Counted from the stretch's first letter, positions 5,311-41,544 are shown. The stretch: DNA of 64,000 nt from Methylococcales bacterium (GCA_965224565.1 CBDCZN010000002.1:2230417-2294416); one strand, 5' to 3'. The notes: generated from the letters alone by a model not told the origin. Numbers and translations are program-made.

Positions 5311-5477
5311 GCCACACTGCTTTGACCAGACAACGTTAAAATCAACTACCACGCTTATATAAAACGTAGTGGTTGATTCTGCATGACTAACTACCATTAG
5401 AGTTTGGCACGTTTTATGATAGACTGATTCTATTTTAAATTGTATGAAAAATACAACTGTTTTTGTAGAGAAAATAA

Positions 5478-8260: not shown

Positions 8261-8264
8261 CTAT

Positions 8265-8432
8265 ACTATACTCTCCGCACATGAAATTCTAGCATCCTGT
8301 GCACGCACTTTTTGCGGATAACTGCGTTGAAAAACCTTGCTGTAGAAGTGACTACAGCTAAGATTTTCCGCCCTGCTCTCCACAAAATACCACGCACACA
8401 AAATGCTAGATTTTCATGTGCGAAGAGTATAT
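8265..8432. mobile_element. MITE copy 2
   Basis: Same TIRs and palindromic core (aaaaccttgctgtagaagtgactacagctaagatttt) as the other copies. Confidence 0.8.
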
Positions 8433-8504
8433 TACAACTGCCTTTTAAAACTGAGCTTAATTTGGTCTAACGGCAATCGTCTATTTACTAGATAAATTCG
8501 TCAT

Positions 8505-9776: not shown

Positions 9777-9784
9777 CATCATGA

Positions 9785-12700: not shown

Positions 12701-15076
12701 TGCATCACTAATCGATTGTGCCTTGCGTTGTCTGGTATCGAGCAGCTGCTGTTTATGCGCTTCAAAGGATTCATAAATCTCCTCACGCTTACTCATAATG
12801 TCCGCTAAAAACTGGTCGTAATCACTAAACTGACTTTCCAGTTCTTCCAGCTGCACCAGCAAACGCGATAATTGCTCATCGCAACGCTCAGGACTATTCG
12901 CCATTTCCAGTGCGTTATTGATGCTTTGCGAGAACAGTTTAAACTGTGCAGCGAATTGTGCCAGCGCTTCTTCAGAACCGGTTTCTTTTTGCTTATGGCG
13001 TGCAGTGGCTTTGCTTTGATTGAGCTTGGAATAGACTTCTGAAATCGCATCAACAATGCGGGTACGCACAGTTGCATCGCTGATTTTCAACGTAGTCATC
13101 AACTCTGAAAGTAAATCCAGCCCTCTGGCAGTGGTGTCAATCTCCTCTATTACCGGAGTCAGCTCCGCAATGGTTTGCGCTTTTTCTATTTGCTGATTGA
13201 ACTTCTCAATTTTATCCAGATATGGAAGCAGGGCTTTTTCGTCAGCTAGAAAGATTCCGGTTTTTTCACCGAGTTGCTCACTGCTTTGTTCCAACACCTG
13301 ATCCATTTCGCTAATGCGATCCAAATTAATATAGCGATGCTCTTTAATGGTTGCCAAATGTCCACGTTGACGACGCAATTGATCCAGAGCATTCACATAT
13401 TGCTCGGCTGTTTCCCAACTGTCCGGCTGAATTGAATGCAGTAATTCGGACTGTGCTTGCTCAGCTTCGAGCATGGTTTTAGCGGATTGCTGACGAATGC
13501 TTTCCACTTTTTCAAATTCATCAATTACCAATTCAGAAGTATTGGTAATCTCTTTCAGCAACGTGCCAATGCCTTGCGTTTCTGAATCCTCAATCCAGTA
13601 ATGCGCATCAAACATTTTCGCCGCAGTCTTGCTTAGCTCTTCATACAAGCGAGCAGACACTGCTTGCTCATCAATCAACCGACACACACTGTACAAGTCA
13701 GAAATACCGCGCACCAGCTCAGCATTACCAATACGTCCAAAAAACGATTGATTGGCTGGTACACGGCTGGCAAATTCCTGACTGGTATAAGGTGTGCGCC
13801 AGATTTGCATGGGGTGAATACGAGTCGGTTCACCTTCGGCTGTAAAAATCACCACTGCGCCATCATCTGCCAAAGCGTGTCCATGGCCAACAATCGGGTT
13901 TTGCAGCAACTGTTCAATGACGTTATAGGAAAACAAAGCAACCACACCCAGTTCCGGCTGGTAAAACACATAGAGCACATCCTCACCATTCGGTGAATTG
14001 ATGCGGCGTCTGAATTTTAAGCCCTCAGTCCCGGTATCGTAAGTTTTGTTCTGCCCGTTTTGCAGATAATAACCACCGGGGAAAATAATGCCGTGGTCCT
14101 CTGGAAGTTGCACACAGGATTCACCAATCGCATCCATGCGCAACACACTTTCAGTTGCGGTATTAAAAATAAAATAACGCCAGTCCTGTTCACGATAAGG
14201 CAACATTTTCAATAGAATCAACTGGCCTACTTGCGCATACTCAATTTGAGCATCATCCAGCGACTGAGTCTGGTCTTCAACAGCTTCGCTATAAACTCCG
14301 CGACCATCATCAGTATTATTTTCCACCTTAATGGTTAAATCACCATTAATGGTTTCAACAAACAGCGTATCGAGAATATTGACATGTGGATGGCGACCAT
14401 TCACCGAGTCTTCACGACTGGTTTCCTGCCACTCAAAATCAAAAGCAGGTGGAAGCTGAATATCGCGCTCACCACGATTATCGATATAACTGACTTGCTT
14501 GCCATCGGCAGAAATCGCCCAGCGAAACACGCGGATATCTTCCACCCGCTCACCAATCTGAAAACCAGCCAGTAACTTGCCATTCTTGGCAGTCAGCTCG
14601 ACCAGTCTGGTTTGCTTGTAATAACGATACAGCTCAGCAAAATCATTACGAAATGATGTCTCGGCAAGAAAGCTGGTATCGAGCGTTTGCTGCACCATCT
14701 CATACTGAACATCATCATTGTCGGTATTGTTAACATCCGATGCCGAGGTGGTTGTTAGACGATACAGAGAAAACACATCCTCAATACGGGTTTCCTTCTT
14801 CAACCCGATATAAACGTTATAGCCAAACAACAACAAATCACCGACCTGAACAATATCTCGGGCCACGCAATTGTTTTCAGAACGCACCCGCACCCGAGCA
14901 GCCACAGCCATCTCGGAACTACCAAATTCCGCCAACCGCGCTTTATTTAAGGTTTTGGTTTGATTCTTAAGCTTTTGGCCTTGACCAACAAGGCGTTTAC
15001 GAATCACCTCGTAAGCACCACCTTCGGCTACGGCCTGGTCTACGATGTTGTTGGGTTCTGGTTGTTGATCGAGCAT
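9785..15076 (-). CDS. Giant (1763 aa) coiled-coil protein with a single AAA+ ATPase domain (Walker A SPPGYGKTTL, Walker B VMLYLDDIQH); function unknown
   Basis: Uninterrupted 5.3-kb ORF. Its N-terminal ~400 aa is also present as a truncated paralogous fragment at 19.6-21.9 kb. About 700 aa of predicted coiled coil lead into an AAA_5/MoxR-McrB-like P-loop core at aa ~1180-1350. Confidence 0.6.
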   Translation of the reverse strand: MLDQQPEPNNIVDQAVAEGGAYEVIRKRLVGQGQKLKNQTKTLNKARLAEFGSSEMAVAARVRVRSENNCVARDIVQVGDLLLFGYNVYIGLKKETRIEDVFSLYRLTTTSASDVNNTDNDDVQYEMVQQTLDTSFLAETSFRNDFAELYRYYKQTRLVELTAKNGKLLAGFQIGERVEDIRVFRWAISADGKQVSYIDNRGERDIQLPPAFDFEWQETSREDSVNGRHPHVNILDTLFVETINGDLTIKVENNTDDGRGVYSEAVEDQTQSLDDAQIEYAQVGQLILLKMLPYREQDWRYFIFNTATESVLRMDAIGESCVQLPEDHGIIFPGGYYLQNGQNKTYDTGTEGLKFRRRINSPNGEDVLYVFYQPELGVVALFSYNVIEQLLQNPIVGHGHALADDGAVVIFTAEGEPTRIHPMQIWRTPYTSQEFASRVPANQSFFGRIGNAELVRGISDLYSVCRLIDEQAVSARLYEELSKTAAKMFDAHYWIEDSETQGIGTLLKEITNTSELVIDEFEKVESIRQQSAKTMLEAEQAQSELLHSIQPDSWETAEQYVNALDQLRRQRGHLATIKEHRYINLDRISEMDQVLEQSSEQLGEKTGIFLADEKALLPYLDKIEKFNQQIEKAQTIAELTPVIEEIDTTARGLDLLSELMTTLKISDATVRTRIVDAISEVYSKLNQSKATARHKQKETGSEEALAQFAAQFKLFSQSINNALEMANSPERCDEQLSRLLVQLEELESQFSDYDQFLADIMSKREEIYESFEAHKQQLLDTRQRKAQSISDAAQRMLTNIERRCNRFSDADQLNTYFASDALVLKIRELVEKLRGLDNAVKADDIAGRFKAIQEQALRSLRDKTDIYEDGGNVIKLGPRHKFSVNTQELDLTIIPRNEVLTLHITGTDYFEPLDSPELLALREYWEMALESESPQVYRAEYLAYLILQAAEANQDNLDLTTLQAALHDDAALLTLIRDFSAPRYREGYEKGIHDHDCALILKSLIPALQSADLLRYSPASRALAQIFWANQETMPKLEASYITWQTRAQSAAQMQSSLTSHQATHLLAEEVEQALHSFLKRYPLNQSLEGIAAGDFTALAIEQAAQYLVAELSRERLQFIGSKYAQQLADELKRSLDESTWRNYQTALEKLSHRIDQRWQLTHAWLQALVEHKQLTQLQGYIAEAVALLNGDQRIDRRSSQTDLELNIDQLMGDHPVIQQRSLGFSVDDFLQRLQHHQQVVIKGYHDYHSLRQTIMEQQRLVLRLEEFKAKPLSSFVRNRLINEAYLPIIGDNLAKQMGTIGANKRSDLMGLLMMISPPGYGKTTLMEYVANRLGLIFMKINCPSLGHDVLSLDPDTAPNATARQELHKLNLALEMGNNVMLYLDDIQHTHSEFLQKFISLCDGTRRIEGVWKGNTKTYDMRGKKFCVVMAGNPYTESGELFKIPDMLANRADIYNLGDILGGMDEQFALSYIENSLTSNPVLAPLATREMDDVYKIIDMAKGANIASTDLNHQYSGAELNEIMAVLRKLFTIQELVLSVNQNYISSAAQDDKYRTEPAFKLQGSYRNMNKLCEKVSAVMNDDELMQMISDHYQGEAQLLTTGAEHNLLKLAQLRGNMTAEEQQRWDAIIEDFQRSQSMGGDGADAATKVASQLSYVTEHLESIHQAINSETELMHPMLNISKQLQALQDAVEGKEVGIRVVNKPSLVVEGAIQQLANIVETSLMPVVSSMDKKIDLDLTIVRKVNELSGEIQILRQNLKLEK

Positions 15077-15133
15077 GCCTGTTTCCTGGTGCGTTATGTT
15101 TTGTTTAATTGATAGAAATAATGATGAGTTTAT

Positions 15134-15163
15134 GTAGGTTGGGGTGAGTTTACGAACCCCAAC
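15134..15163. repeat. REP hairpin (3' side of RAYT1): gttgggg-N12-ccccaac
   Basis: A 7-bp stem with a 12-nt loop; the same element recurs at six further sites and always flanks RAYT genes. Confidence 0.75.
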
Positions 15164-15166
15164 AAA

Positions 15167-15703
15167 TCACGCCTTTTCTCCAAACATAAATTCATCAACG
15201 CCATCATTGGTATATCCCCAATCATCATTCAATATGCCTTTCGCTATGTACAGATGGATACTCGAATAAGACCAATCCATCGCACATTTTACGTAACCAT
15301 GTTTCACGGGATTGTAATGAATGTAATCAACATGTTTTTCATAATCATCTTCATCACGAATCAAATGCTCCCAATAACGTCTTTGCCAAATTCCTCGCTC
15401 ACCTTTTGATTGTCTGCTTTTGTCTATTCTCTCAAGCTTGGGCATTACACGAGAAAAACCGGTTTTAATTAGCATCCAACGTGTTGCAAAATCATTATCC
15501 TCAAGTGGCAATGTCCATAACGCATGCAAATGGTCGGGTAATACCACCATCGCATCGATTTTAAACGGATGCTGTTTCTTAACCTTATTCATAACGCTTC
15601 GCAAAATATCGATTTCATCAATCAATAATGAATTGTTGCGTTCCGCCAAATTCACCGTGAAAAAATATGTTCCGCCTTTTATGTCAGCTCTTCGATAACG
15701 CAT
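15167..15703 (-). CDS. REP-associated tyrosine transposase (RAYT, IS200/IS605-like TnpA_REP), copy 1
   Basis: 178 aa with the HxH motif (LPDHLHAL) and the catalytic Tyr region (YIHYNPVKHGYV); flanked on both sides by REP hairpins. Confidence 0.8.
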   Translation of the reverse strand: MRYRRADIKGGTYFFTVNLAERNNSLLIDEIDILRSVMNKVKKQHPFKIDAMVVLPDHLHALWTLPLEDNDFATRWMLIKTGFSRVMPKLERIDKSRQSKGERGIWQRRYWEHLIRDEDDYEKHVDYIHYNPVKHGYVKCAMDWSYSSIHLYIAKGILNDDWGYTNDGVDEFMFGEKA

Positions 15704-15752
15704 TTTATATTCCTAGCGTTTTTTTGATTTCTAGCTGTTTTTGTTGGGGTTC

Positions 15753-15782
15753 GTGCCTCACCCCAACCTACGCAGTCTAACA
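15753..15782. repeat. REP hairpin (5' side of RAYT1)
   Basis: gttggggttcgtgcctcaccccaacctacg. Confidence 0.75.
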
Positions 15783-15893
15783 AGTAAAGTGAACCATGAA
15801 GCAAAACCTCATGCACACACAGTTAACTATAGTAAAACTATGCTAAAAAGCGCGGAAACTCGTTATCAAGACAGAAAAGTGTCTGTGATTAAT

Positions 15894-16976
15894 TTATTCA
15901 TAAGGCTCATCATCATGGCCTGGTTTTTCCAAATCATCCAAAAAATCGGATGACATAATAATTTTTCTTTTTTTGCGGAGCTTAATGACATCAGGGTCAA
16001 AGTTTTTCAGAATATCCTGATAACTTTCATCCAAAAATGATTTGGCTTTATCAATTGCCACCTCAAGCTGTTTTTCTATGAAAGAATACTCAGCCATTAA
16101 TGGTTTACAATCAGCTGAAAAAGTTTGCCAGCGAATTTTCTTCAGGGTTGCTTCATTGGTAAAAATAAAACAACGATGCGGGTCATTATCCCAATCAAAA
16201 TCCTTTGTATAAGCAGCAGGTTCAAGCTTCGAATTCAGCTTGCTGATAACCAGCCAGCGTTTCTGTAAATATGGATACCAGCGATGTTGCAATTCCTTGA
16301 GTTGCTTTTCCAATCCACCGGCATCCTGTTGCATATCCCAGCGATAACCACCCTTGTCCCGCTTTCCATGTTCCTTGCCTTCAACAAATTTATGTGGAAT
16401 CAACTGATCAATATAATCTCTGCCAGTCGCTTCAATCTCATCATAAAGATGGGTTGCAACCGATGTGAATGTTGAATAGTAAAAGTTATCATCAATCAAT
16501 AAGCGTACCCACGGTGGCCAACGAAATGCATAGTATTCTGTACCCTTATAATCTTTAGAATCCTTCTTTCTTGCCTGCTCCTGAAACAGATAATCAGCAT
16601 GGTCATAATCGTAAAGTGTGCTGAAATCGAGCAAACTTTTATTATCTGCCATCGGCTCATTGAGACAAATCCAATCATCACCAATGCCCGCTGTTAGCAG
16701 TTTAGCCCAGTTAAGAACATTCAAATTATCAAGAGAAAGCTCTCTCCATACCTCATCAACGTCTTCAAGAGAACATTGAATATTCAGCAAATCATCCAGA
16801 AGCACACGCTTCACTTTTTGACAGGATTGTTCATTCATTGTTGCCCGAAAATGTTCTTGTTGTTTCGCTGACAACGAATAATACTGTGAGTCTGCTGCAA
16901 TTAAGGACTTACGGGCAGCGGCTTTTATTTGTGTTTTATCGAGTGAACTGAGCTTGTATTCGGTCGTATTACTCAT
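15894..16976 (-). CDS. Conserved hypothetical protein (360 aa from MSNTTEYKLSSL), partner of the giant ATPase gene
   Basis: The ORF track gives 401 aa, but the likely start is the ATG at 16976 (MSNTTEYK). A second copy, truncated after 8 codons (MINNTEYK) by a REP, lies at 23181-23206 next to the second Fic gene. Confidence 0.55.
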   Translation of the reverse strand: MSNTTEYKLSSLDKTQIKAAARKSLIAADSQYYSLSAKQQEHFRATMNEQSCQKVKRVLLDDLLNIQCSLEDVDEVWRELSLDNLNVLNWAKLLTAGIGDDWICLNEPMADNKSLLDFSTLYDYDHADYLFQEQARKKDSKDYKGTEYYAFRWPPWVRLLIDDNFYYSTFTSVATHLYDEIEATGRDYIDQLIPHKFVEGKEHGKRDKGGYRWDMQQDAGGLEKQLKELQHRWYPYLQKRWLVISKLNSKLEPAAYTKDFDWDNDPHRCFIFTNEATLKKIRWQTFSADCKPLMAEYSFIEKQLEVAIDKAKSFLDESYQDILKNFDPDVIKLRKKRKIIMSSDFLDDLEKPGHDDEPYE

Positions 16977-17264
16977 TTCAATGATCCTGTACCTGGTATG
17001 GAAAATACTTGGTTGTGTGTGTGTGATGAACCCTGAACTATACAATATCACTATCGCTACAAAACTGATCAATTCAACAAGAGAAAACATACGATACAAG
17101 CTTCAGAAATACCAACTTATCGAAATGATTCCTGAATGCCTGTATTTAAATTACGGTGGCGAATCGATCTAAGGTAATTCTATTTCTGTTACATTATAAA
17201 GGCTTTGCGACAACACCAGGTCTGCTGGTGTGTGATCATCATAGTTAGCGATCTGTTACAATTG

Positions 17265-17432
17265 CATACTCTCCGCACATGAAAATTTAGCATGTAGGGT
17301 GGGTGATTTTTTGTGGAGAGCAAGACGGAAAACCTTGGCTGTAGTTATTCTACAGCAAGGATTTCCAACGCAGCTATCCGAAAAAAAGTGCGCGCCCTAC
17401 ATGCTAAACTTTCATGTGCGGAGAGTATATTT
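17265..17432. mobile_element. MITE copy 3 (inverted orientation)
   Basis: Same TIRs; the core is the reverse complement relative to copies 1, 2 and 4. It overlaps the 5' extension of the Uma2 ORFs and shows that those extensions are spurious. Confidence 0.8.
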
Positions 17433-17453
17433 AGTCCTCTGGAACAAACTGAT

Positions 17454-18023
17454 ATGTCACAACCAGTCAAAAGCACAGCAAGCTATCATGATCTGTTCGA
17501 CCTCCCCGAGAACCTCGTCGGCGAGATTATTAATGGCGAGCTGCATACGCATCCGCGACCAGCGCCCAAACATGCCAGGGCCTATTCGGTTTTGGGTGGA
17601 AGTATTGGAAACCCGTACGATTGGGGTGGAAGCGGCCCGGGTGGCTGGTGGATTCTCGATGAACCAGAATTGCACCTTGACAACGACATCCTCGTGCCCG
17701 ATCTTGCCGGGTGGCGACGCGAGCGTATGCCAGCCCTACCCGAAACAGCCTGGTTCGAACTTGCCCCTGACTGGATTTGTGAAATTCTATCGCCTTCCAC
17801 CGCTCGCGTGGATCGCGTACTGAAAATGCCTATCTACGCTCGCGAAGGCGTACGACACCTGTGGCTAGTCGATCCAGACCTGCAAACCCTCGAGGTTTAT
17901 ATTCTCGACAACAGCCGCGACCAACCTCACTGGCTGCTACTCGATAGCCTTGAGGGTGATGCGCCTGTCAAACAGCCACCTTTCGATGCGATCGAGTTTT
18001 CATTAGGGGTGCTGTGGGGTTAA
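17454..18023 (+). CDS. Uma2 family (DUF820) putative restriction-endonuclease-like protein
   Basis: Starts MSQPVKSTASYHDLFDLPENLVGEIINGEL. Carries the characteristic motifs PDLAGW, PDWICEILSPSTARVDR and EGVRHLWLVDPD...LEVY. Confidence 0.8.
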   Translation: MSQPVKSTASYHDLFDLPENLVGEIINGELHTHPRPAPKHARAYSVLGGSIGNPYDWGGSGPGGWWILDEPELHLDNDILVPDLAGWRRERMPALPETAWFELAPDWICEILSPSTARVDRVLKMPIYAREGVRHLWLVDPDLQTLEVYILDNSRDQPHWLLLDSLEGDAPVKQPPFDAIEFSLGVLWG

Positions 18024-18106
18024 TTGCCCGGTTATGGATTTTTCTTGTGTAAGGGTAATTGATTGGCGTTATGTTCACTCACAAATCTATTTTTGTGTGC
18101 TAATAG

Positions 18107-18237
18107 ACAAAGTCCTGTAAAGGGTGCGTTTTACCTACAAATAGCTCACCATGACAACAACACGGAGAGTAATCAATTAGTGTTTGTATTAATCACCGTA
18201 TACAACGTTGTTTGTGGTGCATAAAATGCACCCTACC
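18107..18237. repeat. Second palindromic intergenic repeat type (tagggtgcgttttac... / ...ggtgcataaaatgcaccctac)
   Basis: Imperfect inverted-repeat arms ~90 bp apart; a related element lies at 32948-33046 between the flotillin and nfeD-like genes. Confidence 0.5.
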
Positions 18238-18250
18238 TGGCTAATGTTAC

Positions 18251-18961
18251 TCAAGACTTCTTCCGAATGTATTTTTGTTTAGGGCTATTAGGACTGTTGG
18301 GGTGGCTCATGCTAATAACGCCTTGTTTTAAAGCGGGTAGAAGATAGTTTTTTCTAAACGTAGGTTTATGTGATAAACCCACTTTAGTCATAATTTGTGC
18401 GCTACTTAAATAGCCATCACCCATGACAGATAACAACTTTCCAACTGGGTCGCTTGCTAGGTCGGTGGCATTCATGCTCGCCAAAATAACCGATAACATA
18501 AATTCAATAAATACGGTGCTATCAGCGTTATTATCTGCAGATGACAATGCCTTATAATAATCCTGCTGATTATCTTTAATGGTATTTTCAATTGGTAAGG
18601 AATAGAAAACTTCTCGCCACTGCCCTAAAATCAAAGTCTGCCAGAGTCTACCCATTCTCCCATTGCCATCACTAAACGGATGAATAAATTCAAATTCATA
18701 GTGAAAAATACAACTGCGAATTACTGGATGGTCTTCTGTGTGTTGCAACCAGTGTAATAAATCCTTCATAAGCAGCGGAACTCTGCCTGCCTGCGGTGCA
18801 ATATGAACCACCTTATCGCCCTTATGAATGCCCACATCGCCGCTACGAAAACGGCCTGCGTCGAGTAAAATTTCTTCAGTCATTTGTTTATGCGCATCCA
18901 GTAAATCTTCTATACTGTGTGCGTGATATTGCGCCAAGGCCTCATCGGTTTCAGGATCAGC
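18251..18961 (-). pseudogene. Fic family protein, N-terminally truncated copy (junction with REP at 18962)
   Basis: Has the HPFSDGNGRMGR Fic motif but lacks the first ~90 aa present in the 327-aa paralogue at 23304-24287. The reading frame runs directly into the REP sequence. Confidence 0.7.
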
Positions 18962-18992
18962 GCGTAGGTTGGGGTGAGTTTACGAACCCCAA
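18962..18992. repeat. REP hairpin
   Basis: cgtaggttggggtgagtttacgaaccccaac. Confidence 0.75.
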
Positions 18993-18996
18993 CAAA

Positions 18997-19533
18997 TCAC
19001 GCCTTTTCTCCAAACTCGACACAATCTACCCCATCACTGTTATATCCCCAATCATCACTCAATATGCCTTTCGATATGTACATATGAATACTCGAATAAG
19101 CCCAATCTGTCGCAGATTTTACGTAACCATGTATCACGGGATTGTAATGAATATAATCAACATGTTTTTCATAATCATCTTCATCACGAATCAAATGTTC
19201 CCAATAACGTCTTTGCCAAATTCCTCGCTCACCTTTTGATTGTCTGCTTTTATTTATCCTATCAAGCTTGGGTATTGCACGAGAAAAACCGGTTTTAATC
19301 AGCATCCAACGTGTTGCAAAATCATTATCCTCAATTGGCAATGTCCATAACGCATGCAAATGGTCGGGTAATACCACCATGGCATCGAGTTTAAACGGAT
19401 GCTGTTTCTTGACCTTATTCATTACATTTCGCAGAATATCGATTTCATCAATCAACAATGAATTGTTGCGTTCTGCCAAATTCACCGTGAAAAAATATGT
19501 TCCGCCTTTTACATCAGCTCTTCGATAACGCAT
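18997..19533 (-). CDS. RAYT copy 2 (subtype B)
   Basis: 178 aa; ~85% identical to copy 1, but the C-terminal variant (SATDWAYSSIHMYISKGILSDDW) is shared with copy 4. Confidence 0.8.
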   Translation of the reverse strand: MRYRRADVKGGTYFFTVNLAERNNSLLIDEIDILRNVMNKVKKQHPFKLDAMVVLPDHLHALWTLPIEDNDFATRWMLIKTGFSRAIPKLDRINKSRQSKGERGIWQRRYWEHLIRDEDDYEKHVDYIHYNPVIHGYVKSATDWAYSSIHMYISKGILSDDWGYNSDGVDCVEFGEKA

Positions 19534-19575
19534 TATTTATATTCACGGCGTTTCTTTAGTTTCTAGCCGTTTTTT

Positions 19576-19605
19576 GTTGGGGTTCGTGCCTCACCCCAAC
19601 CTACG
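19576..19605. repeat. REP hairpin
   Basis: gttggggttcgtgcctcaccccaacctacg. Confidence 0.75.
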
Positions 19606-20442
19606 CGGGCTCAATGACGTTATAGGAAAACAAAGCAACCACACCCAATTCCGGCTGGAAAAACACATAGAGCACGTCCTCACCATTCGGTGAATTGATG
19701 CGCCGTCTGAATTTTAAGCCCTCTGTCTCGGTATCATAAGTTTTGTACTGGCCGTTTTGCAGATAATAACCACCGGGGGAAATAATGCCGTGGTCTTCCG
19801 GAAGTTGCACACAGGATTCACCAATCGCATCCATGTGCAACACACTTTCAGTCGCGATATTAAAAATAAAATAACGCCAGTCCTGTTCACGATAAGGCAA
19901 CATTTTCAATAGAATCAACTGGCCTACTTGCGCATACTCAATTTGAGCATCATCCAGCGACTGAGTCTGGTCTTCAACAGCTTCGCTATAAACTCCGTGA
20001 CCATCATCAGTGTTATTTTCCACCTTAATGGTTAAATCACCATTAATCGTTTCAACAAACACCGTGTCCAGAATATTGACATGAGGATGACGACCATTCA
20101 CCGAATCTTCACGGCTGGTTTCCTGCCACTCAAAATCAAAAGCAGGTGGAAGCTGAATATCGCGCTCACCACGATTATCGATATAACTGACTTGCTTGCC
20201 ATCGGCAGAAATCGCCCAGCGAAACACGCGGATATCTTCCACCCGCTCACCAATCTGAAAACCAGCCAGTAACTTGCCATTCTTGGCAGTCAGCTCGACC
20301 AGTCTGGTTTGCTTGTAATAACGATACAGCTCAGCAAAATCATTACGAAATGATGTCTCGGCAAGAAAGCTGGTATCGAGCGTTTGCTGCACCATCTCAT
20401 ACTGAACATCATCATTGTCGGTATTGTTAACAGGTGAATTCA

Positions 20443-21536
20443 GTTTCAAAGTGCACCACCTAACATAGAGATTAGGACACCAAAGGCAGTTCTGTTATTT
20501 TGAGGTTTACGACAACTTCAAAAACAGGAGCTCCTGATGTCCTATACCCATCTTAACGCGCGAGACCGCATGTGTCTTTTTTATAATCATCAAGCTGGTG
20601 TGCCGCTTCGGGAGATTGGCAGAAAATTGAACCGATCACACACCACGCTTTCACGTGAACTCAGGCGCAATAAACGATTATTTAATTGTTATTGGGATGA
20701 AGCAGCGCAACAATTTGCAGACGCTAGAAAAGCAAAACCCCGCCATACAAAACGAGCGTCCAATGAGAAGCTCAAACAATATGTTTTGGGTAAGCTCAAA
20801 ATTGGCTGGTCACCGGAAATTATCAGTAATCGATTAAAACGCGACTATCCACACAGCAAAAAGACCATGAGGCTGAGTCCGGAGGCAATTTATCAGTGGA
20901 TATTCAACGATGCTGAACAACAAGGCACGCTCTACACGTATTTGGTTCGCAGCCACAAGAAGCGGCGGAAACAAAGACGATACGGCTCATTGAGGGGGAA
21001 CATACCAGGTCGTGTTGATATCGATGAGCGCCCATGTGCGGTTGAAAAAAGGCTGCGCTATGGCGATTGGGAAGGTGACACCATGGTTGGCCATAGGCAT
21101 CAGGGCAGATTCGTTACGCATATTGAACGTAAGTCCCGATTTCTACTGTGCGGCAAAGCACAAGATGGTACAGCCAGTAATTTTAACCAAGTAAGTTTAA
21201 AGCTATTCAAATGCATTCCTCAAAGGTATCGCAAAACGATGACGTTAGATAATGGCAGTGAAAATAGCTTGTTCAGAGAGTTACAAGAAAAGCTCAAATT
21301 CAAGGTCTATTTTGCCAAGCCTTATGCAAGCTGGGAACGCGGTAGCAATGAAAACACCAATGGTTTAATTCGGCGATATTTTCCCAAAGGAACCAACTTC
21401 TTGAAGGTGACAGAATTTGAGCTTGAAAAAGCAGTCAATTTGCTTAATCATAGGCCTAGAAAATGCCTCAAATACAGAACACCTTTCGAGGTCTTTGATT
21501 CGATATCAGGTGGTGCTCTTGCAACTTGAATTCACC
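20443..21536 (+). mobile_element. IS30 family insertion sequence (1094 bp), IRs ggtgaattcag.../...ctgaattcacc, 3-bp TSD aca
   Basis: IRL 20443-20467 and IRR 21512-21536. The flanking aca is duplicated, and the uninterrupted paralogue has gttaacatccgatgc at the same site (14735-14749). Confidence 0.85.
20537..21529 (+). CDS. IS30 family transposase (330 aa)
   Basis: N-terminal HTH (GVPLREIGRKLNRSHTTLSRELRRN) and a DDE core; the ORF runs into the IRR, as is typical of IS30. Confidence 0.85.
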   Translation: MSYTHLNARDRMCLFYNHQAGVPLREIGRKLNRSHTTLSRELRRNKRLFNCYWDEAAQQFADARKAKPRHTKRASNEKLKQYVLGKLKIGWSPEIISNRLKRDYPHSKKTMRLSPEAIYQWIFNDAEQQGTLYTYLVRSHKKRRKQRRYGSLRGNIPGRVDIDERPCAVEKRLRYGDWEGDTMVGHRHQGRFVTHIERKSRFLLCGKAQDGTASNFNQVSLKLFKCIPQRYRKTMTLDNGSENSLFRELQEKLKFKVYFAKPYASWERGSNENTNGLIRRYFPKGTNFLKVTEFELEKAVNLLNHRPRKCLKYRTPFEVFDSISGGALAT

Positions 21537-21937
21537 ACATCAGATGCAGAGGTGGTTGTCAGACGATACAGAGAAAACACATCCTCAATACGGGTTTCCT
21601 TCTTCAATCCGATATAAACGTTATAACCAAACAACAACAAATCGCCGACTTGGACAATATCCCGCGCCACACAATTGTTTTCAGTCCGCACCCGCACCCG
21701 CGCAGCCACAGCCATCTCGGAACTACCAAATTCCGCTAAGCGTGCTTCATTTAAGGACTTGGTATGATTTTTGAGCTTTTGGCCTTGGTCAACAAGGCGT
21801 TTACGAATCACCTCGTAAGCACCGCCTTCGGCTACGGCCTGGCCTACGATGGTATTGGATTCTGGTTGTTGATCAGGCATACCTGTTTCCTGGTGCGTTA
21901 TGTTTTGTTTAATTAATAGAAATAATGATGAGTTTAT

Positions 21938-21967
21938 GTAGGTTGGGGTGAGTTTACGAACCCCAAC
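21938..21967. repeat. REP hairpin
   Basis: gtaggttggggtgagtttacgaaccccaac. Confidence 0.75.
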
Positions 21968-21970
21968 AAA

Positions 21971-22507
21971 TCACGCCTTTTCTCCAAACATAAATTCATC
22001 AACGCTATCATTGGTATATCCCCAATCATCATTCAATATGCCTTTCGCTATGTACAGATGGATACTCGAATAAGTCCAATCCATCGGAGATGTTACGTAA
22101 CCATGTTTCACGGGATTGTGATGAATGTAATCAACATGTTTTTCATAATCATCTTCATCACGAATCAAATGCTCCCAATAACGCCTTTGCCAAATTCTTC
22201 GCTCACCTTTTGATTGTCTGCTTTTATTTATTCTCTCAAGCTTGGGTATTGCACGAGAAAAACCGGTTTTAATTAGCATCCAACGTGTTGCAAAATCATT
22301 ATCCTCAATTGGCAATGTCCATAACGCATGCAAATGGTCGGGTAATACCACCATGGCATCGAGTTTAAACGGATGCTGTTTCTTGACCTTATTCATTACA
22401 TTTCGCAGAATATCGATTTCATCAATCAACAATGAATTGTTGCGTTCTGCCAAATTCAACGTGAAAAAATATGTTCCGCCTTTTACATCAGCTCTTCGAT
22501 AACGCAT
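21971..22507 (-). CDS. RAYT copy 3 (subtype A)
   Basis: 178 aa; nearly identical to copy 1. Confidence 0.8.
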   Translation of the reverse strand: MRYRRADVKGGTYFFTLNLAERNNSLLIDEIDILRNVMNKVKKQHPFKLDAMVVLPDHLHALWTLPIEDNDFATRWMLIKTGFSRAIPKLERINKSRQSKGERRIWQRRYWEHLIRDEDDYEKHVDYIHHNPVKHGYVTSPMDWTYSSIHLYIAKGILNDDWGYTNDSVDEFMFGEKA

Positions 22508-22548
22508 TCATTATATTCCTGGCGTTTCTTTAGTTTCTAGCTGTTTTT

Positions 22549-22578
22549 GTTGGGGTTCGTTCTTCACTCCAACCTACG
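22549..22578. repeat. REP hairpin (degenerate: gttggggttcgttcttcactccaac)
   Basis: Point substitutions in the loop and 3' stem. Confidence 0.6.
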
Positions 22579-22583
22579 CGGGC

Positions 22584-23092
22584 TACTCCATCACTGTTAT
22601 ATCCCCAATCATCACTCAATATGCCTTTCGATATGTACATATGAATACTCGAATAAGCCCAATCTGTCGCAGATTTTACGTAACCATGTTTCACGGGATT
22701 GTAATGAATATAATCAACATGTTTTTCATAATCATTTTCATCACGAATCAAATGTTCCCAATAACGCCTTTGCCAAATTCCTCGCTCACCTTTTGATTGT
22801 CTGCTTTTATTTATTCTCTCAAGCTTGGGTATTGCACGAGAAAAACCGGTTTTAATTAGCATCCAACGTGTTGCAAAATCATTATCCTCAATTGGCAATG
22901 TCCATAACGCATGCAAATGGTCGGGTAATACCACCATCGCATCGAGTTTAAACGGATGCTGTTTTTTTGACCTTATTAATAACACTTCGCAAAATATCGA
23001 TTTCATCAATCAATAATGAATTATTGCGTTCTGCCAAATTCACCGTGAAAAAATATGTTCCGCCTTTTACATCAGCTCTTCGATAACGCATT
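22584..23092 (-). pseudogene. RAYT copy 4 (subtype B): frameshifted 5' part, lacks 3' REP and last ~8 codons
   Basis: ORF 22530..23009 matches RAYT2 at aa 20-170. Upstream RAYT-homologous sequence continues to 23092 in other frames, and the C-terminus reads through into REP f. Confidence 0.7.
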
Positions 23093-23132
23093 ATTTATGT
23101 TCCTGGCGTTTCTTTAATTTCTAGCTGTTTTT

Positions 23133-23162
23133 GTTGGGGTTCGTGCCTCACCCCAACCTACG
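23133..23162. repeat. REP hairpin
   Basis: gttggggttcgtgcctcaccccaacctacg; immediately followed by the 8-codon remnant of the 360-aa hypothetical gene. Confidence 0.75.
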
Positions 23163-23303
23163 CGGGCTTGTATTCGGTATTGTTAATCATTTCAACCGTC
23201 CTGAGTTGGCTGCATTCAACTGTATTTATGTAACGAATGCGTAGCCTTTATAAAAATGAGATCCTTTGCTTGGCAAGAAATTACCCTCACAGGCTAATGT
23301 TGC

Positions 23304-24287
23304 TCATTGCTGTTTCCGGATGTATTTTTGTTTAGGACTATTAGGGCTATTGGGATTGCTCATGCTAATAACGCCTTGTTTTAAAGCAGGTAGAAGATAG
23401 TTTTTTCTAAACGTAGGTTTGTGTGATAAACCCACTTTAGCCATAATTTGAGCGCTGCTTAAATAGCCATCACCCATTACCGATAACAACTTTTCAACTG
23501 GGTCGCTTACTGGGTCGCTTACTGGGTCGCTTACTGGGTCGGTAGCATTAATGCTCGCCAAAATAACCGACAGCATAAATTCAATAAACACGGTGCTATC
23601 AGCGTTATTATCTGCAGATGACAATGCATTATAATAATCCTGCTGGTTACTTTTAATTGTATTTTCAATTGGTAAGGAATAGAAAGCTTCTCGCCACTGC
23701 CCTAAGATCAAAGTCTGCCAGAGTCTACCCATTCTCCCATTGCCATCACTAAACGGATGAATAAATTCAAATTCATAGTGAAAAATACAACTGCGAATTA
23801 ACGGATGGTCTTCTGTGTGTTGCAACCAGTGTAATAAATCCTTCATAAGCAGCGGAACTCTGCCTGCCTGCGGGGCAATATGAACCACCTTATCGCCCTT
23901 ATGAATGCCCACATCGCCGCTACGAAAACGGCCTGCGTCGAGTAAAATTTCTTCAGTCATGCGTTTATGCGCATCCAGCAAACCATCCAAACTGTGTGCC
24001 TGATATTGTGCCAAGGCTTCATACGCCTTAATAGCCCCTCGTACCTCAGCAATTTCTCTTTGCGAACCCCTGACTGGCTTACCGTCGACAATAGCAGACA
24101 CCTGCTCCAAGCCTAAAGTATTCCCCTCAATTGCCAACGTACCCGTGATGGTTTTTATCCTGTTTTGTTTGCGAAGCTGTGGTGAGTTTTGAATTTCAAT
24201 GATAGCCGCACCCGCTACAGCCTCACTGATCTGTACAACCAGTGAAAGAATTTTCGGGGTTATTGTGTAGGGTGGCTGGTAGATCAT
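23304..24287 (-). CDS. fic: Fic family protein (327 aa), full-length copy with an in-frame (VSDP)n repeat
   Basis: Fic motif HPFSDGNGRMGR. The C-terminal ~70 aa looks like a winged-helix domain. A 12-bp unit tgggtcgcttac is repeated ~3.6 times at 23499-23541. Confidence 0.8.
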   Translation of the reverse strand: MIYQPPYTITPKILSLVVQISEAVAGAAIIEIQNSPQLRKQNRIKTITGTLAIEGNTLGLEQVSAIVDGKPVRGSQREIAEVRGAIKAYEALAQYQAHSLDGLLDAHKRMTEEILLDAGRFRSGDVGIHKGDKVVHIAPQAGRVPLLMKDLLHWLQHTEDHPLIRSCIFHYEFEFIHPFSDGNGRMGRLWQTLILGQWREAFYSLPIENTIKSNQQDYYNALSSADNNADSTVFIEFMLSVILASINATDPVSDPVSDPVSDPVEKLLSVMGDGYLSSAQIMAKVGLSHKPTFRKNYLLPALKQGVISMSNPNSPNSPKQKYIRKQQ

Positions 24288-24415
24288 TAGTTTAGTTGCA
24301 TAAATTTCGTGCTGTTTTTATGATTTCGCGAATACAGTTCCTGTTAAAACCGGGCTATTATTCATCACTTTTGACAACAACACGGTAGTGTTTCAGATTT
24401 GTAGTTTATGTCATT

Positions 24416-24874
24416 CTAGATAGATCGTCCAAACTCATATCGATTGATAAATAATCCAATCACAATATCATGCATCATCTCAAGCTTGGAGAAACAAATT
24501 GTCTTCCTCGCTAGTCGTTTGATCCGTGTCCTCAATGTCAGGTGCTTGCGCTCAATTTTCTGAGTATTTTGTTTGCCGATATGATGGGACTCCTCATCCA
24601 AAATACGCTCATAGGCTCCCCAGTCATCCGTATAGAAATGCTGGATTCCGAAGGGCTCCAATAATAACGTGAGCTGCTTGAAAACATGATCTTTGCGTCG
24701 CCCCAGGACATAGGCGAGTATCTCCCCAGTGTGATGGTCAATCGCATGCCAAAGCCAGCGTTGATTGGATTTGTTTGTTACAAAACTCCACATTTCATCC
24801 ATCTCTGCTTCGTCACATCTCTGAATAAGCACCTGTCTTTCATCAGGATTATCCAAGCGATTGAGTACGGCCAT
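24416..24874 (-). CDS. insB: IS1 InsB-like transposase ORF
   Basis: AEMDEMWSFV motif comparable to E. coli InsB CAEMDEQWGYV; DDE region. Confidence 0.8.
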   Translation of the reverse strand: MAVLNRLDNPDERQVLIQRCDEAEMDEMWSFVTNKSNQRWLWHAIDHHTGEILAYVLGRRKDHVFKQLTLLLEPFGIQHFYTDDWGAYERILDEESHHIGKQNTQKIERKHLTLRTRIKRLARKTICFSKLEMMHDIVIGLFINRYEFGRSI

Positions 24875-24885
24875 GTTGATTGATT

Positions 24886-25164
24886 CTAGTTGAGCCTCTT
24901 TTTTTTTAACGTGTCAATGACAGTGGTTGGACTAATGGACAGCACGCGAGCAATATCACGCACACCACTTCCGTTCATGGTCATGTCAATAATGGTTTCT
25001 TTGATGCCGGGTTGGCAGGCTTGATAGCTATAGTCGCACATAAAAGTTGTTCGCGAGCACTCATTGTTATGACAAACATAGCGTTTTCTTCCGTCCTTGG
25101 TTTGGCCATGTCTGCCGACAGAATGACTTCCACAATATGGACAACAGACAGGTTCGACGACCAT
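24886..25164 (-). CDS. insA: IS1 InsA-like zinc-finger/HTH protein
   Basis: CCPYCGSHSVGRHG...YVCHNNEC zinc finger and a C-terminal HTH; the likely start is the second Met (MVVEPVCCPYCG). Confidence 0.75.
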   Translation of the reverse strand: MVVEPVCCPYCGSHSVGRHGQTKDGRKRYVCHNNECSRTTFMCDYSYQACQPGIKETIIDMTMNGSGVRDIARVLSISPTTVIDTLKKKRLN

Positions 25165-27350
25165 AAAATAAACTCCTATTATTGACTGTAAAAGCAATAT
25201 ATAAGAGTCGAATATTAAAGTAAACTATCCGGTGTACCCTACAAGTCTGAAACACTACCAACAACACCTTGCTTGGTATGGAAGACACCTTACATAACTA
25301 TCTCAAGACTCACATGCTCAGCAATGATACGTTTAGCTTCATTTTCATAACTAGAGGCCAGTTCTCTCAGTGTTATCGCTAACCTATGAAATCCGGCATT
25401 TTCTACATCTTCTGCTTTCTGACTATATTGTTCAGCAAGTTCTCGCTCTGGCTTTCCAGTTGGATCAACCGTGTGAACTCCGCGTGAATGGTATATCCCA
25501 GCTCTAAAACTCTTGCGCATCATATCTGCATCGCTAACATTCAATGCTTCAGCTACCTTGCGGTTAATCCACAAACCATTAGAGTCTGCTGAGCAATGAA
25601 TTAGCCCTTCTCCAACATGGCGAAGGGCTATATCTAAATGTCCAGATTTAGAACATATATCCTTCACACTCTGTAGCCAGCTTGTGAATTGGTTATCATC
25701 AAAACTGCCATCGTCCTGAGTTCCTGGGGGAGTTTTCCATTCACGAAGCAACAGCGAGGCATTCTTTGCAATCTTCTTTTTTTCTTCAGATAGCTCGTAT
25801 GTGTTTTCTTCTGCATTTTTTGAACGATAAACCAATTGGATAACTTCACTGAAAAAATCAGGATTATTTGCAAGTCGATTTTCAAGTATTTTAGGCGAAG
25901 TTCCTGAATAGGTATCGAGAAGTGGAAGATATGCCCATTCAATCTGAAAAAGATCATCTTGAGACACATCTGAACTGTTCTGAAGAAACTTAATCAGCTT
26001 GACAATGTTATGTCTATTCATTGAAGAAGTTGATTCATTTGAAGTCAAAGCAGAAAGCAAAGCATTAATACATTGAGAATAATCAATTGTTTGGTTAGTG
26101 AGGAGCAAACTACTTAAACAGTTAATTGCAGCATTTGGTCGCCCATATTGAATCAGTTTCTCAATTGCTACATAACTACCCTCATCTAATCGAATAGGAT
26201 TTACATAGACTACTGACCAATACTCACTCTCTGAACCACCAAGCCATTGTTCTGCACGCTCCCAAGTTTCTTTGGTAAAAGGCAGAAAGCCCAGAAACTT
26301 CCCGATCTGTACTTTACTCCAGTCTGATTTATCCAGCTTATCAGCCCATGACCAATCATTTATGTAGCGGCGACTCCAAATATATCCACCTATAAAGTTC
26401 GAAAGCTTAAGATCTTCACACCCTAGATACTCAGGAAGTAAAGCTAAATCAATATCCGTATCAGCAATACAACCAAGAGCCTCTCCAACCAGCTTTGGTG
26501 ATTCTACAGTCTTAGCAAACTGGATAACTTCTTTGATACCTTCTGTATCCAAAATCTCTTTTATAGCCACCTGGCGTCGTTTTTCGAGTTTTTTGTGCTG
26601 AATATCCCAATTGCCTTTATCTTCATAAAGATCCCAGCTATTATCTGAAAACAAGTATTGATAAATATTTACAGGATTCGATGGAGAAAGTTTATCGGCA
26701 ACAGTCTCAATGGCTGTAAACAACTCATCATTCAAAGCCCATTTTTCATCGGTATATCGGCGATGTTCACGAGTAAATTTAGTAAGATGATTCCAAAGGA
26801 TTAAGCGCTGATCTTCTGGACTTTCTGTAATAACATCCGAAGATAAAACTCCAAGCAATTTATCAAATGAAGGCTTGGGTAAATTATTAAGATGACCAAT
26901 AAGCTCGACAAGCTTTGATATATCCTGACCAGCCATAGAAACAGCCATCTCAGAGTAAAACGACACCTGATCCCAATGTTCTTGTTTCGTTACATCCTTT
27001 GTCCAGTCATTTGGTATTGTGTTGCGCCATGAAGGTTTATGAGTACCAAATGATGTCTGGTGTTGATTTGGCAATAGCTCGATAAGTAGCTTCCAGCCGA
27101 CTTCGGGCCACTCGTTGCAGAGAGTTTTAACTGCCACTTTGCGTTTCTTAAATGAGGCGGTCGTGTGAGGCAACCATGGTAGTAAAATAGTTGCAAGAGA
27201 GCTGTCAGGACGGTTAGTCCAGTTTCCACCTGGATCGTGACTAGCTAGCTCTCCAAAAACAACACAAACCCGAACCAGATTATTCTCATCCCAAGCGAGG
27301 CCTTCCAATGCCCTAAGCAAACCAGTGATATAAATACCCCCCGTGTTGCC

Positions 27351-28777
27351 CAATGTCACTAACTTAAGCTCAACTCATTGTAATCACAGCATTCTTTTAT
27401 AGCACGGATGAAATTTCCGACGGGCACCACTGCGTTTTTTGCGTTCAAAGCGTCTGTCTGGCCGTATAATCGTCAGACTTTGCCTGATTGTTTCCACTAA
27501 TTGTTCGTATCCCTGCATTGATATCAAACCGTACAAGCATTTTACGATGGTATCTTTCATCGTTGACAAGGCCTGTGCAAAATTAATCTGGTAACGGCAT
27601 TTTCGGTGCGGTAGCGTCTGATCTGGATGTCGCTGTGCGGCAAACACCGCAATGGCTGTAAGATTCAAACTCAGGATACGCGCATGATAATCTTGTTGCA
27701 CACTTAACACTGATTTGCCGGTAAAATTCTCGATCTCCAACCAGGATTTCTGGCGCTTATAGCCTTCTTCGATTTGCCAGCGCAGATGATATAACGCTTT
27801 AAACGCATGGACTGGATAACGTTGTGTGTTCAACAGATTGGTCATTAAAAAGTACACTTTCTTTTTCACTGTGATGTGGATTAGTCGCACTGTCTGTGAT
27901 TCAACTGGCAAGCCTCTGCCGAGGCATTTGTGTCTTGCCTCATCGCTGGCCGTCAAGGTGACGATCTGCTGCTTGGCTCCAGAGGCAACGAATTGACTGA
28001 CTTCGGTATTAAAGTCGGCTTTGACACGCATACACCAGTCACGTTGATAAAACTGATGTGCAGCCATCAACCAGAATGCTGGATAGCCTCTGTCGTACAG
28101 GATTAAATCACCGGCTTGCGTGGCTTCCAGGTGTTTGAAGGCAACCTCGCGTTCATCACTACGATAAGGAAACAGCTGTGCATCAATAATGATTTTCTGA
28201 TGGATATCGTAGAGTGCTGAACCGAGCGCCATTGGCACTTCATCGGTATGCTGGTTCGATTGCCCACCAAATTCAGTATGAATCGCCTCCTCATTCGGCA
28301 AATGGTATTTCACTCCATCCACAGCCAGCACACGATGTCCATTCCAGGTCTGTGCTGTGACTGCTGGATAAAAGTGGTTGATCACATGCCTGTTCAGATC
28401 AACAAAGGCAGTTGCTGAGAATTTCAGGCGTGCTTTGAAAAAAGCGGCGGCTGTGACTTTAGGTGTCGGAACATCCAACTGGTCACGGATCTGAAAGAAG
28501 CGATTGAGCTCTGATTGAGTGTTGCCTTTGAGCATGTTTAAGCAATAACTGATCAAAACAGGGAGTGTCAGGCATCGATTACGTGTGAAGTCCTTGTCAT
28601 CAATACGGTGAGTTTCGATGAAAGCGGCGCTGTTAGTTATTTTGGTTATAAGCTTATAGGTATTAGGAAATAAGAGTTGGGTCGATCATTGGGTGCCTCA
28701 TGCGGGTTGTTTTGTGAGTTAATTATACGATATTTCAATCAGTTATAGGGGGTGGATTGCTTAAGTTAGTGACATTG
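27351..28777 (-). mobile_element. IS4 family insertion sequence (1427 bp), 19-bp IRs caatgtcactaacttaagc, 11-bp TSD cccgtgttgcc
   Basis: Perfect terminal IRs at 27351-27369 and 28759-28777, with direct repeats at 27340-27350 and 28778-28788. Confidence 0.9.
27384..28556 (-). CDS. IS4 family DDE transposase (390 aa)
   Basis: DDE_Tnp_1 pattern (..LAVDG..., YHLRWQIEEGYKRQK). Confidence 0.85.
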   Translation of the reverse strand: MISYCLNMLKGNTQSELNRFFQIRDQLDVPTPKVTAAAFFKARLKFSATAFVDLNRHVINHFYPAVTAQTWNGHRVLAVDGVKYHLPNEEAIHTEFGGQSNQHTDEVPMALGSALYDIHQKIIIDAQLFPYRSDEREVAFKHLEATQAGDLILYDRGYPAFWLMAAHQFYQRDWCMRVKADFNTEVSQFVASGAKQQIVTLTASDEARHKCLGRGLPVESQTVRLIHITVKKKVYFLMTNLLNTQRYPVHAFKALYHLRWQIEEGYKRQKSWLEIENFTGKSVLSVQQDYHARILSLNLTAIAVFAAQRHPDQTLPHRKCRYQINFAQALSTMKDTIVKCLYGLISMQGYEQLVETIRQSLTIIRPDRRFERKKRSGARRKFHPCYKRML

Positions 28778-41518: not shown

Positions 41519-41544
41519 ATTTGAAACTATAAAGGAAGTTTAAT

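Follow-up and report, generated by a model that had tools for sequence, protein, structure and literature searches.

Four RAYT units within 8 kb of a Methylococcales genome: local duplication, mosaic copies and illegitimate joints at the outer edge of a REP

We describe here a cluster of genes for REP-associated tyrosine transposases (RAYTs, or TnpAREP) in a 64,000-nucleotide stretch of Methylococcales bacterium DNA (the window, below, means this whole 64 kb), which was taken from a 3.3 Mb contig. The minus strand between 15.1 and 23.2 kb carries four copies of a ~650-bp unit in which a RAYT gene, intact in three copies and frameshifted in one, is associated with repetitive extragenic palindromic (REP) hairpins in the arrangement known as a REPtron, and these copies lie among a giant gene, a gene for a 360-aa protein and a Fic gene. 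Three independent illegitimate joints in the cluster fall at one nucleotide, the outer edge of the conserved upstream REP, 11 nt beyond the hairpin foot. That the cluster was built by local duplication and recombination is highly probable; that the RAYT itself catalysed the joints is a more tentative proposal, to which we would give slightly less than an even chance, and for the whole explanation, enzyme step included, we estimate a probability of about 0.5.

RAYT enzymes are thought to spread REPs and REP doublets (REPINs) while remaining single-copy themselves. To our knowledge, the cut-and-paste of REPs in vivo is still not understood. A preliminary description of this DNA had called four copies in 8 kb unusual for genes that are normally single-copy, and published surveys bear this out: group 2 RAYTs average 1.3 copies per replicon and 7.7% of RAYTs have a duplicate that is at least 95% identical (PMC5581495), while class 2 tnpAREP genes are present in few copies that are weakly conserved within a genome (PMC6006769). 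According to the literature, there is no formal evidence that the tnpAREP gene is itself mobile (PMC6006769).

The RAYT proteins and their REP hairpins

The family assignment made in the preliminary description holds for all four minus-strand genes, of which RAYT1, RAYT2 and RAYT3 each encode 178 aa and RAYT4 is frameshifted. RAYT1 and RAYT2 score 200.5 and 197.6 bits against the NCBIfam model NF047646, 'REP-associated tyrosine transposase' (cut-off 80), while the Pfam Y1_Tnp model for IS200 is barely passed, at 23.7-25.6 bits (cut-off 23). The match to E. coli TnpAREP (PDB 4ER8) covers residues 2-176 with an E value of 6.4e-46, and both catalytic motifs are present in all four copies, the HUH motif as DHLHAL, aligned with EHMHCI of 4ER8, and the catalytic tyrosine in VDYIH, aligned with VDYIY. 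The predicted products are true RAYT/TnpAREP proteins of a group-2-like kind. The copies, all within 8 kb, are 92-99% identical to one another, and because the only members of their 90%-identity protein cluster found on the 3.3 Mb source contig are the three intact open reading frames (ORFs) of the window, there is no sign of genome-wide spread; as judged from this contig, amplification is local and confined to one locus.

In a complete unit, read along the minus strand, an upstream REP is followed by an ORF of 178 codons and then by a downstream REP. The four units, U1 to U4, and the joints, named J2 to J4 after the units at which they lie, are as follows.

15134..15778, minus strand: REPtron U1, intact, in its native position, with the start of the giant gene on one side and the 360-aa gene's 3' end on the other; downstream REP with GTAG at 15134 and hairpin at 15138-15163, RAYT1 at 15167-15703, upstream REP hairpin at 15743-15767, then CTAC-GCAGTCT to 15778
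18946..19611, minus strand: REPtron U2, intact, the joint of the segmental duplication; downstream REP hairpin at 18968-18993, RAYT2 at 18997-19533, upstream REP hairpin at 19576-19600, then CTAC-GCGGGCT to 19611
21938..22584, minus strand: REPtron U3, intact, the positional homologue of U1; downstream REP hairpin at 21942-21967, RAYT3 at 21971-22507, degenerate upstream REP at 22549-22573, ending GCGGGCT at 22584
22585..23168, minus strand: partial REPtron U4, fused head to tail to U3 (J3); upstream REP hairpin at 23133-23157, ending GCGGGCT at 23168

U4 is short by 62 nt, lacking its own downstream REP and the last ~9 codons of its gene, and a single additional A within an A7 run shifts the frame of the RAYT4 ORF (~22530-23091). 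Its counterpart in a closely related assembly is an intact ORF of 186 aa, the tail of which is read from the REP. The earlier account of copy 4 as a pseudogene lying directly against copy 3 holds for the window, where the gene is frameshifted and the unit fused to U3, and does not extend to the close relative.

Each REP has the form GTAG followed by GTTGGGG(T)-loop-(A)CCCCAAC, with a perfect, G+C-rich stem of 8 bp, a loop of 9-10 nt and a folding energy, as DNA, of -7.8 kcal/mol. Six perfect GTTGGGG-N11/12-CCCCAAC hairpins occur in the 64 kb, against 0.00 expected by chance, and a seventh, at 22549-22573, is degenerate (-2.7 kcal/mol). All seven GTAG-tagged hairpins flank RAYTs, in agreement with the number first reported. 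The accompanying statement that each RAYT is bracketed by REPs applies to U1-U3 only, as U4 has no left REP of its own and the last codons of its gene are replaced by the right REP of U3; likewise, the reported extension of the hairpin to 'cgtagg' is found at U2 and at the right-hand REPs, with 'tgtagg' at the left of U1 and U3. The two REPs of a unit are reverse complements in inverted orientation, with GTAG 5' of each hairpin, which is the canonical REPtron layout; the pair is ~580 nt apart and encloses the RAYT gene. Scans of the whole window for repeats and REPs found no short-spacer REP pairs (REPINs or bacterial interspersed mosaic elements, BIMEs) and no REP arrays. Nor did they find any REP outside the RAYT units within the 64 kb, so that REP density in the window does not explain the truncation points; a genome-wide density high enough to place REPs there by chance had been named in advance as the finding that would undo the case. 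A scan of the whole window against Rfam gave no match.

The same inverted GTAGGTTGGGG...CCCCAAC REPs flank homologues that are 55-85% identical across metagenomes, and the heptamer just outside GTAG, which reads AGCCCGC on the other strand, belongs to the family-wide REP consensus. The metagenome scan with RAYT2 returned mostly homologues of 55-75% identity and few close relatives, and served to define the family architecture rather than to supply extra joints. Contigs were also scanned for the REP core, as GTAGGTTGGGG-N9-14-CCCCAAC; many of the matches listed come from unrelated Proteobacteria and have a TGAG...CGAA loop, so the core is widespread, and none of the matches listed was a locus near-identical to the window.

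Joints at the outer edge of the upstream REP

U2, U3 and U4 share the ending ...CCCCAAC-CTAC-GCGGGCT (CCTACGCGGGCT) on the side upstream of the RAYT gene, and the sequences that follow it in the three units are unrelated to one another. Two gene pieces, the giant-gene fragment (from 19612) and what is left of the 360-aa gene (from 23169), each lie 11 nt past the hairpin foot and directly after ...CTACGCGGGCT. In the list below, a slash marks the joint.

J2, 19611/19612: U2 to the giant-gene interior; observed GGGCT/CAATG, native CTGTT/CAATG (13913/13914), overlap T
J3, 22584/22585: U3 to the interior of a RAYT unit; observed GGGCT/ACTCC, native AATCT/ACCCC, overlap CT
J4, 23168/23169: U4 to codon 8 of the 360-aa gene; observed GGGCT/TGTATTC, native GAGCT/TGTATTC (16952/16953), overlap GCT

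No REP is present at the native partner sites in the intact paralogues. Because the AGCCCGC outside GTAG is part of the family-wide REP consensus, the three joints coincide exactly with the outer limit of the conserved REP. The constant part ends in CT in all three. We also considered a strict rule by which CT precedes the joint at both partners and set it aside: it holds for J3 and J4, and the native giant-gene site of J2 reads TT.

A fourth joint, between Fic and U2, lies elsewhere. The last position with homology to Fic is 18945, which leaves 18 nt to GTAG and 22 nt to the hairpin foot, and the intervening bases 18946-18963 (CGGTTTCAGGATCAGCGC) form an outer extension of the U2 downstream REP that resembles the GAT(G/C)AG-N3-6 found at the family's downstream REPs. 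The claim that the Fic ORF, the giant-gene fragment and the 360-aa remnant all terminate precisely at a REP thus stands for the latter two and not for Fic; the position first given for the 360-aa remnant, 23181, also has to be moved, to 23168/23169.

Relatives show the same edge. In L125, a locus in an organism ~93% identical, and in L207 and L210, two metagenome contigs of ~1 kb each, one constant downstream flank is combined with three different upstream flanks at this REP edge. Two distant members of the RAYT family, L150 and L186, at loci with ~60% protein identity, carry partial duplicates that consist of the upstream REP and the first 42-66 RAYT codons (L150, 2885-3132 = 5262-5509; L186, 1511-1797 = 2923-3209), and these begin 6-7 nt 5' of GTAG, at the same edge. 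A constant upstream-REP edge with a variable far end recurs both in L150 and L186 and in L125, L207 and L210, which represent strain variants of one related locus.

The joints of the window were checked in two contigs of one independent ENA assembly with ~70x coverage, L003, which spans 8997-19980, and L124, which spans 21483-27398, and in L126, a contig from another metagenome. L003 and L124 reproduce the four joints at 99.5-99.7% identity, and L126 also has the Fic/U2 joint and J3. As independent assemblies thus contain all of the joints, misassembly of them is excluded; an artefact of assembling a repeat-rich region, for which a related contig that switches between blocks within identical stretches (L001, below) might be cited as a precedent, if it is a chimera rather than a recombinant, is barely conceivable as an account of the locus. 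No conserved target motif adjoins either end, the flanks at the constant end being CATTG, GGAGT, ATACA, AACAA, TTGTT, TCATC and AACGA. Since no truncated gene in the window has its reciprocal half beside the other end of a unit, the joints are not simple insertions.

Segmental duplication and mosaic copies

Self-BLAST of the window pairs 13914-14735 with 19611-20432 (97%), 14733-15773 with 21537-22579 (93.5%) and 18230-18945 with 23283-24022 (90%). Block A runs in the order giant gene, U1, 360-aa gene, Uma2 gene and Fic without its 5' end; block B consists of the 5' 1.16 kb of the giant gene, split by an IS30-family insertion sequence (IS), followed by U3, U4, the first 7 codons of the 360-aa gene and full-length Fic. 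The features of the two blocks, apart from the units already listed, are these.

9785-15076, minus strand: giant gene, intact; its 5' 1.16 kb (13914..15076) is the copy-A counterpart of the duplicated fragments
15894..16976, minus strand: 360-aa gene, copy A, intact; counterpart of the remnant at 23169-23190
18251..18945, minus strand: Fic copy A, 5'-truncated; homology to full Fic stops at 18945
19612..20432, minus strand: duplicated internal fragment of the giant gene, = 13914-14735 at 97%, joined to the U2 REP edge (J2)
20433..21536, plus strand: IS30-family IS, splitting the duplicated 5' part of the giant gene, with an apparent 3-bp target duplication
21537..21937, minus strand: duplicated start of the giant gene and upstream region, copy B, = 14733-15133
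23169..23282, minus strand: what remains of the 360-aa gene, namely 7 codons from the ATG (23190-23188) onward and the upstream region, joined to the U4 REP edge (J4)
23304..24287, minus strand: Fic copy B, full-length, 327 aa, SoFic-like, the right-hand end of the duplicated block

The locus is an imperfect direct duplication of 5-7 kb that comprises the giant-gene 5' end, a REPtron, the 360-aa gene and Fic; because the block was duplicated directly, U1 and U3 are positional homologues, and U2 forms the joint. Block B has since decayed through insertion of the IS30 element and loss of the 360-aa gene. The four units of the preliminary description accordingly exist, mostly as products of local segmental duplication and recombination between copies, not as four independent insertions.

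The copies do not fall into clean lineages. Over the ORF's 3' portion and the downstream REP, U1 goes with U3 (a type) and U2 with U4 (b type), a and b being 87-91% identical, so the two C-terminal subtypes first noticed, copies 1 and 3 against copies 2 and 4, are real; the 5' third of the ORF, on the other hand, groups copies 2 and 3 with the relative's copy 4, at 99-99.5% identity among the three, and all four combinations of 5' and 3' segment types are present. For this reason a single phylogeny of the four RAYTs was abandoned in favour of segment-wise identities. The flanking duplicated genes are only 90-97% identical, as against 99-99.5% in the ORF 5' third, indicating that RAYT copies exchanged sequence recently, and by these comparisons the copies are mosaics produced by homologous recombination or gene conversion.

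Strain variants add to this picture. L126 carries FicΔ–U–U4, in which U matches U2 toward Fic and U3 away from it, each at 100%, and the intervening giant-gene fragment is gone; judged by these identities it is the deletion expected from recombination between U2 and U3, and so direct evidence of such recombination. The tail of U2 and its downstream REP are 98% identical to a REPtron at another locus, in L125, where the b-type relatives are placed between a DUF7380 gene, on their upstream side, and a Phd/PIN pair, on their downstream side. An empty site corresponding to the L125 locus was sought in the window; only a neighbouring gene is shared (31084-31690), and there is no comparable site. 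We likewise rejected L001, an 8634-bp contig of GCA_044240345.1, as the un-duplicated ancestral state, since it switches between A- and B-type sequence, from B to A inside a 72-nt Fic stretch identical in both blocks (window-B 23802-23874) and back again near the IS30 site. Though it resembles an un-decayed second block, it is an assembly chimera or a gene-conversion product.

How the joints may have formed

RAYTs cut single-stranded DNA at CT (or CA) 5' or 3' of a REP, with GTAG as the guide, and cleavage leaves a 5'-phosphotyrosine that any 3'-OH can resolve (PMC8266576). At this locus, the RAYT would bind the upstream REP as it reads on the minus strand, the probable lagging-strand template, where GTAG stands 5' of the hairpin and the orientation is the active one. 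The enzyme would nick at the outer edge of this REP, a position that in plus-strand sequence comes directly after the CT of ...CTAC-GCGGGCT. HUH/tyrosine chemistry would then link the nicked end either with an ectopic DNA end or with a second (C)T site, with the position of the partner setting the outcome: an adjacent deletion (1.2 kb of the 360-aa gene) at J4, a head-to-tail partial duplication of 586 nt at J3 and a large tandem duplication of ~5.7 kb at J2. Recombination between copies would have been added to this strand transfer at the REP edge. Plus-strand GC skew is negative, making the minus strand, which carries the upstream REP with GTAG 5', the probable lagging-strand template, and the active orientation on that template would explain why the upstream edge, and not the downstream one, is hot. 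That the joints recur at one nucleotide fits enzyme-specific processing. That the RAYTs 'are active here', as the preliminary description suggested, is an over-statement, and we infer activity at most.

Several observations weigh against catalysis by the RAYT or against the history as we tell it. At the native partner of J2 the joint is preceded by TT instead of CT; the strand in active orientation reads N/AGCCCGC and lacks a conserved CT, which is found on the inactive 'iREP' strand; overlaps of 1-3 nt are equally expected from microhomology-mediated template switching; and the Fic/U2 joint, being off the REP edge, needs a second, separate event. If REPs are dispersed in the genomes from which the ~1 kb contigs L207 and L210 derive, these contigs could have been mis-joined through a REP. 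Finally, the 3-10% difference between blocks A and B means that the duplication is old or that one of the blocks came in from a diverged strain, and it puts the order of events, and possibly the genome in which they took place, beyond reconstruction.

An account that needs no enzyme would have the REP hairpin, with or without bound protein, stall the replication fork, and the nascent 3' end switch template through 1-3 nt of microhomology, so giving rise to the deletion, the head-to-tail copy and the tandem duplication and leaving the RAYT gene as a passive passenger between hairpins. It would make good use of the short overlaps at all three joints (T, CT and GCT) and of the stability of hairpins with 8-bp, G+C-rich stems at -7.8 kcal/mol, and REPs at duplication join-points are known from the older enterobacterial literature. 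Breakpoints made in this way should, however, scatter around the hairpin foot, whereas three fall at the same nucleotide 11 nt outside it, with more in relatives, and this account does not predict the asymmetry by which the upstream REP has many joints and the downstream REP none that is exactly at it; we regard template switching as an unlikely source of the joints. A different origin is open to block B, from U2 to Fic copy B, which might have come from a diverged strain, brought in either through homology-facilitated illegitimate recombination or through break repair with foreign DNA as the template, with the joints made elsewhere and the RAYTs inactive in this genome. The uneven A/B divergence of 3-10%, the occurrence of the Fic/U2 joint and J3 in a lineage ~5-6% diverged elsewhere (L126) and the coexistence of several strain variants in the same metagenomes would all suit such an import, which is also compatible with the other readings. 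It only displaces the REP-edge joints without explaining them, though, and the 5' third of the ORF, at 99-99.5% identity among U2, U3 and the U4 of the relative, points to recent exchange inside the locus, so that we find it distinctly improbable.

Least persuasive of the biological alternatives, and in our judgement very improbable, is an autonomous unit of the IS200/IS605 kind that inserted whole into Fic, the giant gene and the 360-aa gene, with unequal recombination and precise excisions afterwards. The defined end of the unit, its presence at a different locus in a relative (L125), the weak Pfam Y1_Tnp match and the documented homologous recombination between units (L126) are all in keeping with this. 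Yet no truncated gene has its other half at the opposite end of a unit, and since the giant gene, the 360-aa gene and Fic each have an intact paralogue that lacks an insertion, at least three precise excisions would be needed in addition to the illegitimate joint J3. The flanks of the constant end lack a conserved target motif, the REPs are inverted and not co-oriented as in IS608, and the copies of the 90% cluster on the 3.3 Mb contig all lie within these 8 kb.

Strand transfer by the RAYT at the REP edge might be taken one step further. The REPtron may copy itself together with adjacent host DNA by a one-ended HUH reaction that starts from a fixed nick site, the upstream REP's outer edge on the lagging-strand template, and has variable end points; the products would be head-to-tail partial copies, adjacent deletions and kilobase-sized tandem duplications, and RAYT REPtrons would not always be immobile domesticated genes. 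We offer this extension as doubtful, both in its mechanism and in what it would say about REPtrons at large.

Several natural joints at one REP-edge nucleotide, together with polymorphic strain variants, provide a testable prediction of the in vivo cleavage site of a group-2-like RAYT acting on a perfect-stem REP, and the locus is an example of gene truncation, deletion and duplication associated with a REPtron. For the question of tnpAREP gene mobility it offers circumstantial, not formal, evidence. Should the enzyme have the proposed role, domesticated Y1 transposases would still be able to remodel their own neighbourhood; should it not, the locus is still a clear case of REP-associated illegitimate recombination.

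Neighbouring genes and other repeats

The giant protein has 1763 aa, with DUF3686, AAA and DUF7902 domains, the 360-aa protein has no assigned family, and both genes adjoin the SoFic-like Fic gene (PADLOC, 1.6e-38). Neither protein has a match in PADLOC or NCBIfam, and among the neighbouring large proteins only Fic matches PADLOC, as SoFic. IS1, IS30 and Uma2 genes occur in the same stretch as the giant gene, the 360-aa gene and Fic, a stretch that may be a defence or accessory island. The IS30-family element encodes a 330-aa transposase with HTH_38 and rve domains and is present in the ENA relative too. A gene for a Uma2-family endonuclease (17313-18023) and one copy of a repeat resembling miniature transposable elements with inverted repeats (MITEs) lie between the 360-aa gene and Fic in block A (17100-18230); both are missing from block B (23200-23283) and from L126, making this an insertion/deletion polymorphism. 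Within Fic, a DPVS-coding 12-nt tandem repeat has two more units in copy B (23485-23540) than in copy A (18440-18470), and L126 is intermediate.

The window as a whole carries much mobile DNA. IS-sized near-identical repeat pairs are found at 38757-39788 = 61587-62618 (99.7%) and, in inverted orientation, at 53328-54737 against 58360-59769 (99.9%), and a diverged direct repeat of ~500 nt pairs 42841-43337 with 43672-44168 at 77%. The MITE-like palindrome, ~165 bp long with arms of ~79 nt, has no Rfam match and five copies in the window (5142-5310, 8262-8434, 17255-17431, 41353-41521 and 42623-42794); in relatives it stands ~120 nt downstream of the b-type REPtron (L125 3242-3406, L207 and L210), the L207 copy being flipped with respect to that of L125.

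Comparison with known systems

Only in pattern does the locus recall one-ended or rolling-circle HUH elements (IS91, ISCR and Helitrons), which share with it a constant end, here the upstream REP edge, a variable far end and the co-duplication of adjacent host DNA. The variable ends that can be likened to theirs are U4, 62 nt short, U2, which runs ~18 nt past its REP, and the 5' fragments of L150 and L186. The enzyme here is a single-tyrosine Y1 RAYT, however, whereas theirs is Y2 and Rep-like, and no ori- or ter-type ends are defined. REP-mediated tandem duplications in enterobacteria likewise have a REP at the join-point, but arise between two pre-existing REPs, whereas the partners here are internal to genes and free of REPs in the intact paralogue.

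Members of the IS200/IS605 family (IS608 and ISDra2) have a Y1 HUH transposase, sub-terminal hairpins and a guide tetranucleotide 5' of the hairpin, as the unit does, and the geometry of the right end is similar, with the end ~10-11 nt beyond the hairpin foot. Unlike theirs, which are co-oriented, the hairpins of the unit are inverted, and no conserved target tetranucleotide is found at an end; nor did we find dispersed identical copies, or simple insertions with both gene halves.

Compared with the E. coli-type REPtron of group 2 TnpAREP (Ton-Hoang/Chandler; Nunvar; Bertels & Rainey), the locus departs in having four copies, 92-99% identical in 8 kb, instead of one, in lacking any dispersed REP, REPIN or BIME in the 64 kb window, in the fusion of REP edges to the interiors of three protein-coding genes, and in a stem that is a perfect 8-bp palindrome with a loop of 9-10 nt, where the E. 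coli stem is bulged. It shares with that system the Y1 HUH protein, the two inverted REPs and GTAG 5' of a G+C-rich hairpin, and the joints adjoin CT, the dinucleotide that RAYTs cut in vitro. On both sequence and architecture, the unit is best classified as a RAYT REPtron and not as a member of the IS200/IS605 family.

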